Origin: an uncultured Verrucomicrobiae bacterium
GTDB taxonomy: Bacteria; Verrucomicrobiota; Verrucomicrobiia; Limisphaerales; Palsa-1400
Length of the DNA stretch: 64,000 nt
NCBI GenBank assembly: GCA_963702845.1
Contig: OY969763.1
Coordinates: forward strand, 4,000,001-4,064,000
Reading direction: 5' to 3'
Below are positions 413 to 30,969 of this stretch, piece after piece (the stretch's first letter is position 1; each line of letters begins with the position of its first letter). The notes under the pieces are model-generated. The model saw only the letters and a program-made list of their open reading frames with translations, was not told the DNA's origin and ran no database searches. The translations under genes and the position numbers were made by a program.

Positions 413-1261
413 GTGAATCCATACACAAAGCTGGTTTCGAATTTCTCAAACGCAGTCAAAGAAGGCCGCTCGCTTCCGCTCGGCGGAATTCCAAAAGCCG
501 CCCGACCAACCATAAAACCTGACGCACCGAAAGCGTTGTTTTTCGCGCCGCATCCGGATGATGAAACAATTAGCGGTGGATTAGCTCTGCGTTTGTTGCG
601 CGAAGGGCCTTGGAACGTCCTCGACGTCGCCGTGACGCAGGGGAGCAACAAGGAACGACAGGCCGGACGATTACAGGAGTTGAAGGCCGCATGCGATTAC
701 CTGGGCTTAGGCTTAATCCAGACAGCGCCGAACGGTCTTGAGAAAGTAACGCCTGCCACGCGCGAGAAAGATTCGACGCATTGGGCGAGCATGGTGCAAG
801 TGACGCGCAAAATCCTGGTCGAACAAAAGCCGCGCGTGATCATGTTCCCGCATGTATTGGATTGGAACGGAACACACATCGGCGTGCATCACCTCGTGAT
901 GGACGCGTTGAAAGCGGAGCTATCGATCGATTGCTTTCTGGTCGAGACAGAATTTTGGGGACAAATGGCGGCTCCTAATTTGATGGTCGAATATTCCGAG
1001 CAAGACGTCGCTGATCTGATTGCCGCGACTTCCTTCCATGTCGGCGAGGTCAACCGCAATCCCTATCACCTGCTGCTTCCAGCCTGGATGCAGGACAACG
1101 TGCGGCGCGGAACGGAGTTGGTCGGTGGCCAGGGTGGCGCTGCCCCACAGTTCGTGTTCGCACAGCTCTTTCGAATCGGACGCTGGCGCAATGGCGCGGC
1201 GGAATGGTTCAAGGCGCAGTTTTTGCCAGCATCGCAAAACGCGGCAAGTTTGTTTCAATGA
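413..1261 (+). CDS. PIG-L/LmbE family de-N-acetylase
   Basis: FAPHPDDE metal-binding motif, later D-x-N-x-T-H motif; 282 aa. Confidence 0.85.
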   Translation: MNPYTKLVSNFSNAVKEGRSLPLGGIPKAARPTIKPDAPKALFFAPHPDDETISGGLALRLLREGPWNVLDVAVTQGSNKERQAGRLQELKAACDYLGLGLIQTAPNGLEKVTPATREKDSTHWASMVQVTRKILVEQKPRVIMFPHVLDWNGTHIGVHHLVMDALKAELSIDCFLVETEFWGQMAAPNLMVEYSEQDVADLIAATSFHVGEVNRNPYHLLLPAWMQDNVRRGTELVGGQGGAAPQFVFAQLFRIGRWRNGAAEWFKAQFLPASQNAASLFQ

Positions 1262-1728
1262 GCGAACTGGCCATCGTCGCGATCGGCTCGAACCTCGGGC
1301 ACACCCGCGAACTGGTGTTGCGGGCCATGGATCGGCTGCAGGAATTTTCGGACGAACCGATGTTGCGATCGTCCCTTTACGAAACCGCTCCTGTCGATTG
1401 TCCTCCGGGGTCGCCGAATTTCCTGAATGCTGTTGTCGTATTTGAACCGCGTCCCGACGAAACGCCGGACTCCCTTTTGCAAAAACTGCAAGCGCTCGAG
1501 AAAGAATTCGGTCGTCAGCCCAAGAAAATCCTCAACGAATCGCGCCCATTGGACTTGGATATAATCGCTTTTGGCCAACGCAACTTGAGTAGTCCGCAGC
1601 TTACCCTGCCCCACCCTCGCGCGCATTTGCGGCGGTTCGTTCTGGAACCGTTAAGTGAAATTGCGCCGGAATTAGTGTTGCCCGGGCAAACGAAAACAGT
1701 TGCCGTCCTGCTGCAGGAATTGCGTTGA
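1258..1728 (+). CDS. folK: 2-amino-4-hydroxy-6-hydroxymethyldihydropteridine diphosphokinase
   Basis: AIGSNLG, SSLYET, FLNAV, RPLDLDII, LTLPHPR motifs; ATG at 1258 overlaps the upstream TGA (ATGA coupling). Confidence 0.95.
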   Translation: MSELAIVAIGSNLGHTRELVLRAMDRLQEFSDEPMLRSSLYETAPVDCPPGSPNFLNAVVVFEPRPDETPDSLLQKLQALEKEFGRQPKKILNESRPLDLDIIAFGQRNLSSPQLTLPHPRAHLRRFVLEPLSEIAPELVLPGQTKTVAVLLQELR

Positions 1729-1784
1729 TATAGCGCGCCAGCGTCTTGGAGTGCGGCTCCAGTCCGTGCAAGCCGACCGCATGA

Positions 1785-2015
1785 TTGTCTCCGTGTCTCA
1801 TGTCTCAGGCGCCGCAGGGGTGAGACAATTCAATTTTGTCTCAGGCCCTTGGCCCCTGAGACATGAGACAACTTACTAAAGCAGGTTGATAACACGTTCT
1901 GTAAGTCGTTGATAAGAACATGGCGATTCACGACTTGTCTCCTGTCTCCGTGTCTCCGAGGGCAAGCGCCCGGAGACAAATTCTGTTTTGTCTCGGGCTC
2001 CGCTCGCGGAGGCGC
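1785..2015. repeat. TGTCTC/GAGACA symmetric element, copy 1 (right arm degenerate)
   Basis: (TGTCTC)x3-N15-GAGACA-N9-TGTCTC-N15-(GAGACA)x2, core 1871-1935, then (TGTCTC)x3-N16-GAGACA-N10-TGTCTC; aligns by eye with copies at 2986 and 4447. Confidence 0.9.
1902..1914 (-). promoter_or_regulatory. Putative IHF-binding site in element core (also 3139-3151; one mismatch at 4529-4541)
   Basis: Minus strand TATCAACGACTTA matches the E. coli IHF consensus WATCAANNNNTTR; function in this taxon is inferred. Confidence 0.55.
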
Positions 2016-2022
2016 TTCAGAG

Positions 2023-2805
2023 TTAGGGTGGCGACATGTGCGCAATGACCCAGGCAAGATCTCGCGCGGGCGCAGGTGGCGCAGGTGGGGCAAACGGCAA
2101 GCCTTGCCGGTAAATCTGGGTAATGGGCTTTGCCGTGCTTCCATCCATCCATTTATGGATATCTGAATGCCCGTCGGCAAACGTGATACAACAAGATTGA
2201 TTGTGAAAAGAAGCGGGCAAATCCAGCCAGTCATTGGTATCGGTTCCCGAGCGCACTGGAACGAACCACCCATCATTGATGCTGTCGGGATGCTCTTCCA
2301 GCATCGTGAACGTCGTCGAGGGCCTGCTGATCTCGGTGTGGCGAAAAAAACTGTGGTAGGCCGTGCTCCCGGTAAAGGGAATGGAACCGACAAAGCCATT
2401 CATCGAATAAGTCCTCAGGCGCAGGGCCTGTCCCGGAGCCGCACTAAAATCTGCCGGGCAGCGATAAATCCTCACGTTTTGGGCCGTGTAGGGAAGAAGA
2501 GAACCCTGGACCAACAACGCCACGTTGGTGTTATCGCTATTGGCCCCGGACCAGTCCTGAAGTCCCCTGATCCAGCTTCCCGGCGGTGAGTTAGGCGGAT
2601 TGAGCGGCAAAATGTTCTGGGCGTCCCCAACATACAGGGTCCACGCCACTGCCAGTTGTTTTGTATTGCTAAGACAAGCTATCGTGTAAGCCTTTTGTTT
2701 TGCCCGGTTGAGCACGGGCAGCAATAACGCCGCTAGACTGGCAATTATTGCTATGACCACCAGCAGTTCGATAAGAGTAAACCCGTCTCGATTTCTCCTA
2801 TCCAT
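2023..2805 (-). CDS. Prepilin-type N-terminal cleavage/methylation protein with C-terminal H-X9-DG motif (DUF1559-like)
   Basis: [16 protein letters not shown]-terminus, [26 protein letters not shown] at 2805 preferred over the ORF-track start 2904. Confidence 0.9.
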
Positions 2806-2985
2806 TATCAAAGGCTTAATTGTTTTCCTAACCGTTCTAACATTTAATATGCGACAACAATTCGCATATTTGTAACAGGCGAACAAGCACTCAATCGCAG
2901 TCAATTCTACAGCAAAGAAATGTTGCGTGTTTCATCAGGCCAAAGCGCCGGTCGGCGGCCCACTCCAAGACGATCCGCGCGGTTC

Positions 2986-3267
2986 TTGTCTCAGTGTCTC
3001 ATGTCTCAGGCACCGCAGGGGTGAGACAAATTAAGTTTTGTCTCAGGTCCTTGGCCCCTGAGACATGAGACATGAGACATGAGACATGAGACATGAGACA
3101 CGAGACAACTTACTAATGAAGGTTAATAACACTTTCTGTAAGTCGTTGATTAGAACATGGCGATTTACCGACTTGTCTCCGTGTCTCCTGTCTCCGAGGG
3201 CAAGGGCCGGAGACAAATCTGGTTTTGTCTCCGCCTCCGGTGGTCGGGGACAGGAGACAAGAGACAA
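2986..3267. repeat. TGTCTC/GAGACA symmetric element, copy 2 (most complete, with expanded TGAGACA tract)
   Basis: Both two-hairpin arms present; (TGAGACA)x6 plus CGAGACA at 3059-3107; core 3108-3173. Confidence 0.92.
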
Positions 3268-3385
3268 GTTCGCCCTTTTTGCGGCGAGGCTCCTGCCGAC
3301 TTACAAAGGCTCCGCGTAAAATCGCAAGTTATCAGGCGTGGCAACGTCCATCACGTCGAGGTCTGCGAAGTCCCGAAGAATATCG

Positions 3386-4240
3386 TCAATCCCATACTAA
3401 AAACCATCCGGGCTGGTCGTTGGAATACTCGCGTGGGATATGTGCACCAGGTCGCTCCTCACGATAGAACTCCGCTCGAAGCTCGCGTGCCCAGGCCGCG
3501 ATGACTGTCTCATCGACAGGCCCTGCCACGAAGACACAATCACTGTAAGGCTCCAACTCATTCTCTGCATCCACATACTCTCCAACCGGAATCACGCAGC
3601 GATTGACTCCTGGCTCTGTGCTCAATCTGGTCAGTGTCTCCTTGAAGTCAGCCTTACTGGGATGCGGCTCAAGATTCGGGGCGAGGCAATAATTACCCGC
3701 ACACTTGGAAAAGAACTCATCGATCGAAAGGTATGCGACGTGATGGGGTCTCGTGCTTTTGGAGTGGGGCATCCGTAGCCCGCCTGTCCGACTCGTCGTC
3801 GTTGTTGGAATGGGGGCATCATCTCCGTAAAAAGGCGACGCCGGGAATTGCCAGCCTACCATCGCCTGCAATGTCTGATGCAGGAGCTTCAACTTTTCTC
3901 TGAATCCTGGTGGGGAACCATGCACCTGGCCCCTCGACGCCATGCTCCGGGATCCGACCTCCAACTCCGTAATCCACTGAAGGCCGTCACACAGGTGCAA
4001 ATCGCCGAGCGTCGGAGGCCACGACCAAACATCAATCTCGTCGCAAACTTGCCAAAACTTCTCCCATTGTTCAGCCGTGGGAGTCATCGACTCGTCCCAG
4101 TCTCGTGAGTTATTAGAAAAACCGGGTAGCATGAAAGTGAGGTGGCCGCTCTGCCAACAAAAGCTATTAGGACCATCAGGTGGCCACCCTTGAAGACCAT
4201 GCTTTAGTCTGACTGGCTCCAACAATTTTGACGAATTCAT
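3386..4240 (-). CDS. Hypothetical protein, probably two fused domains
   Basis: 284 aa ORF from ATG 4240; Trp-rich N-half, low-complexity linker PIPTTTTSRTGG, C-half ending WFLVWD. Confidence 0.65.
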   Translation of the reverse strand: MNSSKLLEPVRLKHGLQGWPPDGPNSFCWQSGHLTFMLPGFSNNSRDWDESMTPTAEQWEKFWQVCDEIDVWSWPPTLGDLHLCDGLQWITELEVGSRSMASRGQVHGSPPGFREKLKLLHQTLQAMVGWQFPASPFYGDDAPIPTTTTSRTGGLRMPHSKSTRPHHVAYLSIDEFFSKCAGNYCLAPNLEPHPSKADFKETLTRLSTEPGVNRCVIPVGEYVDAENELEPYSDCVFVAGPVDETVIAAWARELRAEFYREERPGAHIPREYSNDQPGWFLVWD

Positions 4241-4446
4241 ATTAGTGCGCGATGCCACCTAACTAAATTATTATGTATTACTTCTTTCCGCCTAAGTTCA
4301 TAAGTGAACGTTAAAGGAGGAGGAAAACTTTCCCTGTTTTTGTTCGTGTGTGTTTGTCGATGGAGCGTAGTTGCGGCACCCAGCGCGGTGCAATCGTAAA
4401 CTTCTGCGCTGCCTGGATTGCGGGAGTTTAGCTGAAGGCGCTCGAT

Positions 4447-4657
4447 TTGTCTCCGTGTCTCCTGTCTCAGGCACCGTAGGGGTGAGACAAGAGACAAACT
4501 TTATAAAGCAGGTTGATAACACTTTCTGTAAGTCGTTGATCAGAACATGGCGTTGGCGATTCACGACTTGTCTCCGTGTCTCCGAGGGCAACAGCCGGAG
4601 ACAAATCTGGTTTTGTCTCCGCCTCCAGTGGTCCGGAGACAGGAGACAAGGAGACAA
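4447..4657. repeat. TGTCTC/GAGACA symmetric element, copy 3 (second left hairpin absent)
   Basis: (TGTCTC)x3-N15-(GAGACA)x2, core 4497-4568 with a TGGCG duplication, then a complete right arm. Confidence 0.9.
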
Positions 4658-4689
4658 CTCAACAGGCCAGCTAGTCCTCGTCGCTCCGT

Positions 4690-5181
4690 TTACTTCCTCG
4701 TCGCCAGCCGTTTCGACCGCTGGTTACGCTGGACCATGGCTGGATAGAAATTCCAGACCACGTTAACGAGACCCACTCCTATCGCCAGCAATGGGTCCGC
4801 AGATATTCCTAGGTACAAGGCCACCGGCAGGCTGATGACAAAGGCCGCGGTGTGAATGAATTCCGCTCTCCTGGTGTTGTTATCGTATTGCGCTAAACCG
4901 CTCCGTGTCCCGTCGAAGATCAATCTGTCGTAGAGCAATCTCTTGCTGATCCGTGGGTTCCAGACCGTCCGCCGGAGGAGCGTCCTGAACAGCTCGATCC
5001 TCAAAATCTTGCAGGCGGATGCGAATGATTTCGAACGCACGGCTTCGTAGTAGGAGTCGGGAAGCAGCCGATACATGGGCCAGGCGAAGCCGATGACAAA
5101 GATACTCAGTATGTAAAAATTCAGGAGAATTGACTCAAGCAGGATTGCACCCAATGAAGCCGGCTGAGAGTGTTCGACCAT
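4690..5181 (-). CDS. Membrane protein, CrtO-like (glycosyl-4,4'-diaponeurosporenoate acyltransferase family); N-terminus probably extends to ~5278 across an indel
   Basis: TRRAEFIH...N.YP.MVQR...RL pattern recalls the CrtO family; an adjacent frame upstream encodes hydrophobic MTVTRFRILSLQILSSALSAFMLWRASLLVSL, which joins if one base near 5183 is removed. Confidence 0.55.
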   Translation of the reverse strand: MVEHSQPASLGAILLESILLNFYILSIFVIGFAWPMYRLLPDSYYEAVRSKSFASACKILRIELFRTLLRRTVWNPRISKRLLYDRLIFDGTRSGLAQYDNNTRRAEFIHTAAFVISLPVALYLGISADPLLAIGVGLVNVVWNFYPAMVQRNQRSKRLATRK

Positions 5182-5405
5182 CCAGGGACACCAGCAGCGA
5201 GGCCCGCCACAGCATGAAGGCCGACAACGCGCTCGATAGAATTTGCAGCGAGAGGATTCTAAACCTTGTCACTGTCAACTGTGCCTCCAAATGGCGCAAG
5301 GATCTGGCAATCCGGTCGCCTGACGTTTCAGCTCAGCCAGTGACAAAAGAATACCGCAGCCGAAGCGAATGCCAAGCTTCGTGGCGAATTACCAGCGGCA
5401 CACCT

Positions 5406-5462
5406 TGTCTCCGTGTCTCATGTCTCCGGCCACTGCACCCTGAGACATGAGACACGGAGACA
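5406..5462. repeat. Minimal TGTCTC/GAGACA element, copy 4: perfect 21 bp inverted repeat with 15 nt loop
   Basis: TGTCTCCGTGTCTCATGTCTC (5406-5426) is the exact reverse complement of GAGACATGAGACACGGAGACA (5442-5462). Confidence 0.92.
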
Positions 5463-5477
5463 TCCGCTGAAGACCGG

Positions 5478-6740
5478 TCAAAGTGGCTTCGCGTAAATCC
5501 GCTCCATCTTCCCCAACGGATCCACAATCGTTATTCCCTCTTTATCAAACCGCGCCGTTACAGGAGCGCCTTTGCCCTCTTGCATATATTTGAAGTTCAA
5601 ATCCCGCACTATCGCCGCAGCGTGAACAATCGCCACGACAATCCGTGCATCTTCCGCCGTCGGATAAATCTCCGCAAGTTGCTCGCGTTTTTCGTTCGAA
5701 AATTTGCTGCGGCAGACTGCGGCCAGGCCGACGGTGAGACTGTCGACGCCGTAGCCGATGTAAGCTTTGCTGCCGTCGGGCCGGACAACATCGCGCGTGA
5801 AATGATTGTTCGATGTGCGACTGCCACCGCCTTTATTCCACCAGCGAAAACCGCGATATTGTTGATCGCTTTCCACCTTGCCATCGGCACCCAAAATTTC
5901 GTGGCCTTGATTCACCGGCCCTTCGAAGTCCGGAGGCGTGATCCAGTTGTTGTGGAAATTGATGCTCATCCCGTTCTCGAAATCGACCCGCACCTGAACG
6001 GCATCGTAGGCATTGATCTTGTCGCGAACGAGCCGTTGTTTCTGCCCAACAGCCGTCAGCGAAACCGGTTTGCTATTGTAATAATGCCAAATCAAATCGA
6101 CCCAGTGCGGCCCAACATAGCTGAACGGATCGCTCTGCTCCGCCCACTTGAACGTGCTGGTAGAAACTTCGAGCGGCTCTTCCAGATACGCCGTGCCGTA
6201 GAGCGGTGCGCCGATGCGATTCTTGATATCATCGCGAATACGCAGGTGGTCCGGATCGTAACGCTTGTGCATATCCACCGCGACGATCAGGTTTTTCTTT
6301 TTCGCGAGCTCCACAATTTCATCCGCTTCGTGGATGTTCAGGCACATCGGTTTTTCGGTGATGACATGCGTGCCGTTGTTGAGCGCGGCGAGGATGACTT
6401 CGGTGTGCAGATTATCGGGCGTGGCAACGGCCATCACATCGAGGTCTGGAACGTCGCGCAGAATATCGAGCCACGGTGTTTTGCCAAAATAGGTTTTGGG
6501 CGCTTTCCCGGTTAGCTCTTTATAAGTCTGTTGCGCCCGTTGCGCAGACGCTTCAGAGCGCGTCGCGACCGCGACCAATTCAAATTCAATCGGCGCGAGA
6601 TCGCGCGTCCATTTGTCGAGCCCCACTCGCGCAAGTTGCGACGCGATGCCGAATCGCTGAAGATCGGCGTAAGCGCGCATGTGAACGTCGCCGCCGAACA
6701 TGCCGGCGCCAACAAGTGCAATCTTTACTCTGCCTTCCAT
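5478..6740 (-). CDS. Gfo/Idh/MocA family oxidoreductase
   Basis: ALVGAGMFG Rossmann motif, VATPDNLH, HVITEKP. Confidence 0.9.
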   Translation of the reverse strand: MEGRVKIALVGAGMFGGDVHMRAYADLQRFGIASQLARVGLDKWTRDLAPIEFELVAVATRSEASAQRAQQTYKELTGKAPKTYFGKTPWLDILRDVPDLDVMAVATPDNLHTEVILAALNNGTHVITEKPMCLNIHEADEIVELAKKKNLIVAVDMHKRYDPDHLRIRDDIKNRIGAPLYGTAYLEEPLEVSTSTFKWAEQSDPFSYVGPHWVDLIWHYYNSKPVSLTAVGQKQRLVRDKINAYDAVQVRVDFENGMSINFHNNWITPPDFEGPVNQGHEILGADGKVESDQQYRGFRWWNKGGGSRTSNNHFTRDVVRPDGSKAYIGYGVDSLTVGLAAVCRSKFSNEKREQLAEIYPTAEDARIVVAIVHAAAIVRDLNFKYMQEGKGAPVTARFDKEGITIVDPLGKMERIYAKPL

Positions 6741-28404: not shown

Positions 28405-30969
28405 TTAGCCGAACAAATCCATCTGCGGCGGCGGGCCCAGCTTTTTCAACGCCTCTACCTCACGTCGCGGACGATGCTGCCGCACTTTGCCTTCTGGCGT
28501 GAGTTCGGAGTCTTCGAGATTACGTAAAATTTCTTTGGCGCGTTCGACCACCGTTTTTGGAACTCCCGCTAGTCTTGCCACTTGAATGCCGTAGCTTTTA
28601 TCAGTTGCGCCTTCCACAATTTTGCGCAGGAACACGATCTGATCATTCCATTCGCGCACGGCCACGTTGTAGTTCTTCACCCGCGGCAGTCGTCCGGCGA
28701 GTTCAACTAATTCGTGATAGTGCGTGGCAAAGAGGGTTTTGGCGCCGACAACGTTGTGCAGGTGTTCGACGATGGACCACGCCAGACTCAAGCCGTCGAA
28801 CGTGCTCGTGCCGCGACCAATTTCATCAAGGATGACGAGGCTGCGAGTCGTCGCGTTGTTGAGGATGTTCGCCGTTTCGCTCATCTCGACCATGAAGGTT
28901 GATTGGCCGCGCGCGAGATCGTCGCTCGCGCCAATGCGAGTGAAAATGCGATCGACCAGATCGATCCGCGCCGAACTGGCCGGAATGAACGAGCCCGTGT
29001 GTGCCAGCAACGCGAGCAGTGCGACCTGCCGGATGAACGTGCTTTTACCTGCCATGTTCGGGCCGGTGATGAGGACTAATTGCTGCGCGGCGTTGCTGAG
29101 ATCGGCGTCGTTCGGAACGAACCGTTCTTCGTTGAGAGACTGTTCCAGAACCGGATGCCGGCCTTCGCGAATTTCAATGACGCCCTCGTCGCGCATTTCC
29201 GGGCGGCAATAGCTGTAGAGGCGCGCGATCTCGGCGAAACCGGCGAGCACATCGAGTTGGGCGAGGGCGGCGGCGGTTTGCTGCAGGCGCGGGAGTTGTT
29301 CGAGCACCTGTTCGCGGACGCGTTGGAAGAGTTCGTACTCTAACTTTTCGCTGCGTTCTTCCGCGCCGAGGATTTTGCCTTCCATCTCTTTCAACTCCGG
29401 CGTGATGAAGCGCTCACCGTTGGCGATCGTTTGTTTGCGGATGTAATGCGCGGGGACTTTGTCGAGATTGGATTTGGTAACTTCGATGTAATAACCGAAT
29501 ACCGAATTAAACCGCACTTTCAGCGAAGTGATTCCTGTTCGTGTGATCTCGTCCTGTTGAAGTTTGGCGATCCAATCTTTACCGTCACGCGAACCTTGCG
29601 GAGTTCGTCGAGATTAGGATCGAAACCGTCGCGAATGATGCCGCCTTCTTTCAGCGCGAGCGGCGGTTCGTCGACGATGGCGCGGGAAATCAATTCAACG
29701 AGATCGGGGGCTTCGGCTAGTTCGTTCCCAAGTTGTTCGAGCAAGATTGGCGGACGGTTTCCGGCGGCGGTTGAGGGATGGGCAGTTCACGTAAAGTGCT
29801 CGGCTCGGAGGCGGCCACGGTCCGGAGAATCCGTTTCAGGTTGGGAATTTTTTCCAAGTGCAAGACGAAGTCCGTTTAGATCACGCCCGTTTCCGGAGCC
29901 GACGCTTAAGCGGCCAATCGTCCGTTCAAGATCGCGAACTTCGGCTAGCTCGACTGCGGAAATCGTCCAGGGAGTTGGATGTTTCGAGCCAGCGTTGTAC
30001 CGCGTCTTGTCGTTGGCGGATGGGTTCGACGGCAGCGAGGGGTTGGCTCAGCCAATCACGCAATCGCCTCGCGCCCATCGGCGTGACGGTCTTGTGCAGC
30101 GCGCCGAACAAGCACGATGTCCTCGGGGCGTCCGAATGGCGCGGCTCGAGAATTTCGAGGTTGCGCAGCGAAATTGAATCGAGGGCAAGAAAATCGCGCG
30201 ATTGATAAAACGACAGCCGGCTCAGCGCAGAAACGTCGCGACGCAGGTGCTGCGTCAAATAGTGCAATACGGCTCCGACCGCGCCGATGGCGGCGGTTTT
30301 GTCTTTGAGACCAAAGCCGTCCAGCGTCGAGACTTTAAAATGTTCGCGCACGGTGAAGATCGCGGTTTCGGGCGCGAACACCCAATCTTCGTAGGGATTG
30401 CAGATCGAGAAATTATTTTCGAGCAGTGGACCAAGCGATGTTGCGCCGGTCGGATAGACAACTTCTGCCGGGCGCAAGCGTTCGAGTTCGGTGCTTAACG
30501 CTGCGTCGCCATCCAATTCGGTCGTTTTGAACTCGCCGGTCGTCATATCGACGCAGGCCAATCCGTAGGTACTGCCAATCGGACACAATGCTGCGAGAAA
30601 ATTATTTCGTTCTGGAGCGAGGAGCCGTTCGTCGAAATGGGTTCCCGGACTGAGAATCTGAGTGACGTCGCGTTTAACGAGTTGGCCGGGTTTGGCTTCT
30701 TCCAACTGTTCGCAAATCGCCACTTTGCGACCGGCCTTGAGCAGGCGCGCGATGTAGCCGTTGGCGGCGTGGAACGGAATACCGCACATCGGGACGACGC
30801 CGCGTTTGGTCAGGGCAACGTTGAGGAGTTGCGAGCCCGTTTGAGCATCTTCGAAAAACATTTCGTAGAAATCGCCCAGCCGAAACAGGAGCAACGCTTC
30901 ACGCGGCAGTTCGCTTTTAATTCGGCGATACTGCGCCATCATTGGTGATAATTGAGCGTCGCTACCCAC
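28405..30969 (-). CDS. mutS: DNA mismatch repair protein MutS, split by several frameshifts between ~29590 and ~29950
   Basis: N-terminal [24 protein letters not shown]-terminal [38 protein letters not shown]. Confidence 0.95.

Follow-up and report, generated by a model that had tools for sequence, protein, structure and literature searches.

Integron attC arrays and pdif modules carry one structured site for each of a series of unrelated genes, and cassette arrays of this kind are usually credited to integrases, as dispersed palindromes are to HUH or DDE transposases. Work on the Staphylococcus aureus pathogenicity islands (SaPI) describes an origin whose iterons stand immediately downstream of rep and are read by a C-terminal winged helix, and Rep proteins that are self-loading initiators, 3'-5' helicases with their own primase (PMC9371898); work on repetitive extragenic palindromic (REP) sequences describes palindromes of 20-40 bp tagged by GTAG or CGTC (PMC3733652). 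We analysed a 64-kb stretch of contig OY969763.1 (hereafter the window) from the 6.03-Mb genome of an uncultured Verrucomicrobiae bacterium (G000), in which four palindromic elements built of TGTCTC/GAGACA hexamers alternate with three unrelated genes; positions marked C1 are in contig numbering and unlabelled positions are in window numbering. At this locus both the cassette-array and the dispersed-palindrome patterns are linked to a replication helicase, and no recombinase lies within reach; on balance we lean towards an integrase-less helicase-palindrome element in which imprecise, replication-linked local re-copying builds cargo arrays. The relatives used for comparison were G001 and G002 of the same genus and G304, G211, G169 and G412 of genus g113 in another family, and the pattern searches for palindromes covered 401 genomes.

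Palindromes and their cognate helicase

A full element consists of palindrome A, a 65-bp core and palindrome B, the palindromes being about 90 bp of hexamers arranged as three forward copies, a spacer, one reverse copy, a short AT loop, one forward copy, a spacer and three reverse copies. Element 1 (1785..2015) comprises palindrome A at 1785-1871, the core at 1871-1935 and a palindrome B with a shortened right arm; element 2 (2986..3267) has a palindrome A with additional tandem hexamers, the core at 3108-3172 and a full palindrome B at 3173-3267; and element 3 (4447..4657) has a shortened palindrome A, the core at 4497-4567 and palindrome B. Element 4 (5405..5463) is a minimal palindrome of two arms with three hexamers each, folding as a hairpin, and its right arm repeats the left arm of element 1 in inverted form at 24/24 positions. 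A first-pass annotation, made from the letters of the window, had recognised these four elements and a near-identical core of about 65 bp in the three full ones; the array proved to be real, with pairwise core identities of 55/65, 60/65 and 56/65. The hexamers are concentrated here, 51 of the 67 in the window lying inside 1785-5462, and no further hexamer doublet occurs from 5470 to the window end, in agreement with the earlier remark that the element is found nowhere else in the window. The Poisson expectation for a 100-nt stretch with at least six of these hexamers is 1.3e-8 per genome.

The window units fold into long hairpins with z scores of -7.8 to -10.6 (0/200 shuffles), for example -8.5 for unit A of element 1, -7.8 for unit B of element 2 and -10.6 for element 4, and the range for the units of G000 and G002 together is -6.2 to -10.9 (0/200 shuffles). 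The core, which is confined to elements 1-3, forms no hairpin (z +0.12) and is 59-65% AT compared with a genome of 54% GC. Two of its three copies hold what we take to be a consensus of the integration host factor (IHF) type (background 0.035 per kb), which was found near none of 14 other units checked and in 2 of 63 ordinary origins. A run of 26 nt of the core also matches the end region of a related satellite (L020:13374-13399).

When clusters of at least three hexamers were counted across G000, ten were obtained, nine of which are palindromic elements and one a non-palindromic run of three. The nine are the four of the window and five others about 65 kb away (C1:4070351-4076190), all within 75 kb of a helicase gene, and the 65 kb of host genes between both arrays is palindrome-free. 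The first-pass annotation had raised the question whether copies cluster in arrays, and in G000 they do, in two clusters only. The second array is placed between convergent GNAT and LTXXQ genes and contains the cognate helicase gene (C1:4073287-4074833), beyond the window, where the annotation had rightly expected an enzyme to be encoded elsewhere. The gene encodes a DnaB N-terminal domain (PF00772, E 1.3e-15) and a RecA-type AAA_25 domain (PF13481, E 3.9e-22), is split by one frameshift near C1:4074366, and is bracketed by two of the five palindromes of its array, one cluster beginning 3 nt past its stop. The DnaB N-terminal domain would be expected to recruit primase, and no primase domain was found in the helicase itself by Pfam. 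In its four closest homologues, at 72-77% identity, the protein is unsplit and 480-521 aa long; the names of the homologues point to Verrucomicrobiota, and a profile built from 30 of them has matches to DnaB N-terminal domains and a weak one to a RepA helicase in PDB (E 5e-4).

The relationship between the helicase and the hexamer was then assessed over 113 helicase loci with a match, which reduced to 82 non-redundant ones. An iteron cluster, defined as at least five copies of one hexamer within 170 nt, follows the stop codon in 62 of these 82 loci. Sixty loci entered the helix comparison, and 22 were dropped as distant, near-duplicate, short or lacking a cluster within about 1 kb. When each locus was paired with its nearest neighbour in an 11-residue C-terminal helix, the iteron class agreed in 49 of the 60, compared with 22.5 when the pairing used the ATPase core (43.4 compared with 13.6 when close kin were removed), and this helix was the best of 112 sliding windows, whose median was 12.7. 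Eight iteron classes occur over the 60 loci, and the residue code in the putative recognition helix, within the last 65 residues, switches within clades; the G000 helix belongs to the GTCTC class, and so, by pattern, do those of the four closest homologues. Because iterons follow the helicase stop and the C-terminal helix predicts the iteron sequence, the palindromes are very probably origin-derived sites bound by the helicase and not attC sites or, as judged by eye against the 28-bp XerC/D consensus, dif sites. The annotation had likewise held them apart from attC, and neither RYYYAAC nor GTTRRRY, the boxes as it gave them, occurs in elements 1-4. With the helix-to-iteron code, these initiator-origin pairs, which are small, might serve as a set of orthogonal replicons.

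Ordinary homologues are satellites with a single asymmetric origin, and by Pfam 11 of 16 loci have a tyrosine integrase no more than about 9 kb away. With an integrase profile, for which 72 loci were scanned, it was found in 13 of the 18 loci having 8 kb on both sides, those without being G000, G304, G211 and two prophage-like loci. Of 68 origins scored, 3 fold as a single whole hairpin, namely those of G000, of G304 and of one locus that has an integrase. The 43 window open reading frames (ORFs) between the arrays of G000 gave no recombinase or transposase; a tyrosine integrase occurs no nearer than 247 kb, a Y1 transposase no nearer than 338 kb, and the resolvases are about 2 Mb off. Among TTCCA-class satellites, a slot of 384-871 bp between the helicase stop and the origin is filled by a variable gene (10 of 12 loci examined), which indicates that gene gain beside such iterons also happens with an integrase present.

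Several side observations concern this family. The TTCCA slots (L169, L173, L174, L175, L204/L206, L209, L215, L218 and L227) are 41-49% GC and mostly hold one small antisense ORF, with 9 distinct inserts of which 7 are unrelated, making them a candidate defence hotspot. Two further AAA helicase genes in G000 (L003:6430-7982 and L004:5785-7060) have single-copy origin-like regions, and no integrase match was found within 100 kb of the former. Viral contigs yielded 13 ordinary homologue loci, together with one and two unrelated pattern matches. The loose hexamer pattern, searched over genome contigs, gave mostly unrelated taxa among the matches listed and was left out of the counts, as was L041, one of its matches, where a distant AAA helicase has the same hexamer after its stop; among the matches listed (L031-L149), TGTCTC/GAGACA palindromic clusters occur in many phyla, some in multiple copies (e.g., L083, L126, L144 and L094).

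Cargo, joints and junctions in relatives

The window array lies between folK (HPPK; 1258..1728, plus strand; PF01288, E 2.9e-31), which in G002 stands across one palindrome from Gfo, and a Gfo/Idh/MocA oxidoreductase gene (5478..6740, minus strand; PF01408, E 4.4e-22), which is both the right host gene and a source of scars. Cargo 1 (2023..2806), a prepilin-type gene with an N_methyl domain (PF07963, E 1.4e-8) and DUF1559-like, is not at the folK/Gfo junction in G001 or G002, and cargo 3 (4690..5181) is a CrtO-like acyltransferase gene (PF18927, E 3.3e-14). The gene names first assigned, namely HPPK, N_methyl prepilin-type, CrtO and Gfo/Idh/MocA, were all borne out by Pfam, and the three passengers are all on the minus strand, as reported. 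The description of cargo 2 (3386..4240) as one hypothetical gene needs amending: it is still hypothetical, but consists of two small genes fused in frame, from two families of 128-155-aa proteins, whose 46 shorter homologues each cover at most about half of it, the C-terminal half being PF27222.

To the right of the elements, the order at the joints is a palindrome, then a piece of a gene that adjoins a palindrome elsewhere, then the cargo. In a search of 81 flank-target comparisons with 100 shuffles each, the region right of element 2 (3300..3385, minus strand) was found to be a scar in which the 3' end of Gfo with its stop (3300-3320; 18/21 to the Gfo end of G002) is joined to an internal Gfo piece (3324-3385; 52/62 to window 6407-6468), both at 0/100 shuffles. 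Right of element 3 is a decayed helicase 3' end (4657..4690, minus strand; 29 of 35 aligned positions identical, 0/100 shuffles), and because this scar is on the 3' side of the CrtO-like gene, that gene probably occupies the former place of the helicase gene. The genuine Gfo end stands right of element 4. A possible Gfo-like scar right of element 1 (1997..2022, minus strand), 20/26 identical to the Gfo interior at 6533-6558 with 0/100 shuffles, is weak because it is one of the 81 comparisons. The sequences left of elements 1-4 showed no convincing resemblance to folK, Gfo or the helicase gene; the best results stood at 1 and 3 of 100 shuffles, with many comparisons made. The internal Gfo piece has 6 of 9 changed codons synonymous and may either have come in from a near relative or be an old duplicate; the idea that it is closer to the G002 gene was rejected, the piece being 52/62 to the gene of G000 itself compared with at most 46/62 to 12 orthologues. 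The joints are ragged, and a direct repeat of 4-6 nt was obtained for 2 of 17 units or spans, offset from the ends in both, so there is no consistent target duplication. Together with the lack of a recombinase or transposase gene among the 43 ORFs, this leaves the site-specific recombination that had been proposed for the array without support.

The folK/Gfo junction varies among relatives, a point on which the first-pass annotation had raised the question. In G002 (67% complete) folK and Gfo are parted by one 85-bp palindrome, cargo-free and 90% identical to unit B of element 2 in inverted orientation, and in G001 the junction is filled with different cargo; at the GNAT/LTXXQ junction G001 has about 82 bp, palindrome-free. 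All nine G000 clusters border segments missing from those junctions in G001/G002. In the remaining 10 genomes of the family that have a Gfo orthologue, its neighbours are different. The folK/Gfo junction is thus a hotspot with or without the element, since the G001 cargo shows that the site gains genes anyway. Gene capture at the repeats, as first proposed, agrees with the cargo-free junction of G002 and is partly contradicted by the G001 cargo and by the g113 copies, which often stand singly between ordinary genes. The G000-type palindrome pattern was found in 4 of the 401 genomes, with multiple copies in G000 only, and three public sequencing runs with a 0.06 share of words were counted as no evidence. 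The cargo of G001 (L349:626-4346, contig C115) consists of a TPR protein gene, a REP-like tract, an SMI1/KNR4 gene and two small ORFs.

A second integrase-less helicase clade is present in genus g113. G304 has a solitary helicase gene flanked on both sides by TTCTCA palindromes; two further palindromes are on the same contig and one is elsewhere, and the element abuts two genes that, by translation alone, resemble REP-associated tyrosine transposases (RAYT). In G211 a lone helicase has degenerate palindromes at a site that differs from that of G304; each of the two helicases is missing at its own site in 5 of 5 congeners, gene order being poorly kept in g113. The GTCTCA form of the pattern was found in 5 of 401 genomes (G211 with 10 matches, G169 with 3, G412 with 2, and two single low-complexity matches), compared with 3 for the controls, and the copies of G211 cluster on three contigs. 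Helicase 3' remnants adjoin palindromes in contig C59 of G211, at a cluster end as at element 3, and in contig C6 of G169. No integrase was found in the 14 loci scanned.

Other features of the two arrays were also recorded. An AT-rich leader module precedes cargo 1 (2835..2890, minus strand), with 35 blastn matches dispersed in G000 without palindromes, and a second AT-rich leader module (4256..4399, minus strand; 7 matches in G000) heads cargo genes in both arrays, with 87% identity over 140 bp to C1:4070448-4070583. Besides the helicase, the second array contains a hypothetical gene followed by IS110, an 87-aa ORF, a ParE toxin-antitoxin pair and another hypothetical gene; its cargo is in both orientations and the core is absent there. 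The IS110 copy (L001:7000-8740, C1:4071000-4072740) has five other copies in G000 at 95-99.9% and interrupts a dispersed repeat, presumably attC-like, behind a second-array cargo gene. Left of elements 1 and 2 are halves of a palindrome that we take to be REP-like (1734-1760 and 2941-2972), the words of which occur 3-6 times in G000. Further into the window mutS is split into two minus-strand ORFs (28405-30969), which may reflect either an error of assembly or a genuine loss of mismatch repair; such a loss, if real, would favour recombination between divergent repeats.

Proposed array growth and competing explanations

In the explanation that we prefer, the palindromes would be iteron arrays from the replication origin of an initiator-helicase of the phage-satellite type, with a DnaB N-terminal domain, a RecA-type motor and a C-terminal helix-turn-helix (HTH) domain that reads the hexamer. 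The helicase would have left an integrase-bearing satellite to become a minimal unit of palindrome, helicase and palindrome, one such unit having entered the folK/Gfo junction and another the GNAT/LTXXQ junction. At chromosomal palindromes the helicase would open the DNA, and an extra nascent strand, carrying the palindrome and the start of the adjacent gene, would be resolved in the vicinity, either by a switch of template or through recombination among the copies, both of which are generally known processes. Each event would add a palindrome and leave behind a ragged remnant of the former neighbour and a spliced-in foreign segment, giving one cargo gene per palindrome. This would account for the local clustering, the ragged joints, the missing target duplication and the position of all nine clusters in variable DNA; it does not cover the core or the transfer of the unit to a new site or cell. 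To judge from the sequences, the unit is likely to be mobile without a recombinase of its own, and that replication-linked array growth causes the cargo pattern seems somewhat more probable than not. If so, the start of replication would by itself be enough to move a gene together with its sites and to assemble arrays of cargo, and among the orphan palindrome families some would be origins of helicases. The broadest form of the claim, a recombinase-free gene capture that arose at least twice in one bacterial order, whereby an initiator-helicase with a one-helix code moves its own palindromes and builds integron-like arrays, we regard as possible but rather doubtful.

A number of observations weigh against this explanation. 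The G000 helicase is frameshifted, perhaps by an assembly error (2 mapped genes conserved in relatives are also split), and its four closest homologues were compared at the protein level. Neighbouring C-terminal windows also score 33-38, so that the covariation of helix and iteron reflects physical linkage in part; the HTH assignment is weak, HTH_36 being matched in 9 of 32 members (best E 0.001), the C-terminal domain has no match in PDB, and the ESM Atlas gave a single match at 0.76, below its threshold. In G001 (73% complete) the folK/Gfo site holds 3.7 kb of other cargo that is palindrome-free, and the two cargo-gene leaders are mostly unlinked to palindromes in G000, pointing to another route of cargo delivery. 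Among the g113 genomes, many palindromes are single or lie among REP-like pieces between ordinary genes, and one lies inside a gene order that is kept in G304. Whole-gene cargo arrays are clear in G000 only, and in a quick tree the two integrase-less helicase clades are separate, each with 100% support in the Shimodaira-Hasegawa-like approximate likelihood ratio test.

Some of these observations are what would be expected if the palindromes were footprints of a helicase element hopping into gene ends in the manner of REP sequences or miniature inverted-repeat transposable elements (MITEs), the cargo having come separately, by integron-type cassettes or recombination, to a generic hotspot. We consider this, with the one-per-gene pattern as a by-product, a minority possibility to be taken seriously. 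It fits the different, palindrome-free cargo of G001, the palindromes that stand alone among ordinary genes in G169, G304, G412 and G211, and the dispersed leaders, which with the fusion in cargo 2 make the cargo resemble the general pool of mobile cassettes in G000. It does not predict that all nine G000 clusters border segments absent from the G001/G002 junctions with none in the 65 kb of host genes, nor the lack of a consistent target duplication, nor Gfo and helicase scars located exactly between palindrome and cargo, which tie the copying of the palindrome to the joint.

An exchange of small circles, or an enzyme acting from a distance, would explain other parts of the data. Recombination between direct copies might release circles of one palindrome origin and one gene, which the helicase would replicate in trans and which homologous recombination would return to any resident palindrome, stacking them into head-to-tail arrays; the direct orientation, the one gene per element and the single palindrome at the empty site of G002 would follow, and the A-core-B arrangement repeats the layout of iterons, AT-rich stretch (here 59-65% AT) and iterons given for the SaPI origin (PMC9371898). 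The Gfo piece, with its synonymous excess, looks imported from a working orthologue, although an old local duplicate could also yield such an excess. RecA would, however, have to act on short and divergent units (mean column identity 69%), the second-array cargo is in both orientations, and searches of plasmids gave no close relative (14 weak matches at 24-37% identity) and of viral contigs 0 matches to the core, and we regard such circles as improbable. Still less probable, in our judgement, is a distant recombinase or HUH transposase that cuts the hairpins, with the helicase as a passenger. Long hairpins suit single-strand recombinases, the RAYT-like genes abut the G304 element, the 26-nt match to a satellite end and the presumed IHF-type consensus in two of the three cores would be in keeping, and the whole G000 genome has 11 tyrosine-recombinase and 7 Y1-transposase matches. 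All of these matches are far away, though, the joints are ragged and the units truncated, and there are no attC boxes; the core is absent from the second array, the IHF consensus from the vicinity of the 14 other units, and hexamer identity tracks the helicase helix.

Comparison with described systems

The locus resembles integron and pdif arrays in having one structured site per gene, with the window cargo co-oriented, and differs from integron arrays by the lack of RYYYAAC/GTTRRRY boxes, the lack of an integrase nearby and its ragged scars in place of a fixed crossover point. Ordinary satellites of the same helicase family share with it variable single genes beside iterons, but have one slot and one origin, mostly a nearby integrase, and no array. 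Searches of the elements against Rfam gave only miRNA-hairpin and ribozyme matches far below gathering scores and no CRISPR or structured-RNA family, and in the literature searched, which took in few subscription papers, no description of integrase-less helicase-palindrome elements was found.

Measured against the rep-ori of SaPI and the phage-inducible chromosomal islands (PICI) as described (PMC9371898), the likeness lies in opposed iterons of 5-6 nt directly after the helicase stop, in iteron blocks around an AT-rich stretch (elements 1-3), and in a helicase with a putative C-terminal DNA-binding domain, most homologues of which are beside a tyrosine integrase. The locus departs from that description in its helicase, which has a RecA/DnaB-type motor and a DnaB N-terminal domain and lacks a primase domain, in the absence of an integrase within 247 kb, in an AT-rich A-core-B layout that is missing in the second array, and in a symmetric 90-bp hairpin origin found on both sides of the gene with many extra copies between cargo genes. 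With the REP/REPtron/RAYT system (PMC3733652) the locus shares palindromes that stand on both sides of a cognate gene and are dispersed between genes singly and in clusters with pieces of flanking DNA; unlike that system, it has hexamer iterons of about 90 bp, a bracketed gene for a replicative helicase and not a HUH transposase, a low and regional copy number, and its nearest Y1_Tnp match 338 kb away. Correia, RUP and YPAL MITEs (PMC2229807) are likewise short, non-coding, inverted-repeat intergenic units, with an IHF-type site in a longer form, while the present palindromes have no consistent target duplication and no matching transposase and are tied to a helicase by position and sequence code. 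In general, the comparison suggested that the locus falls outside the PICI, REP/RAYT, integron and MITE groups, working in parts like a SaPI/PICI rep-ori and spreading like a REPtron.

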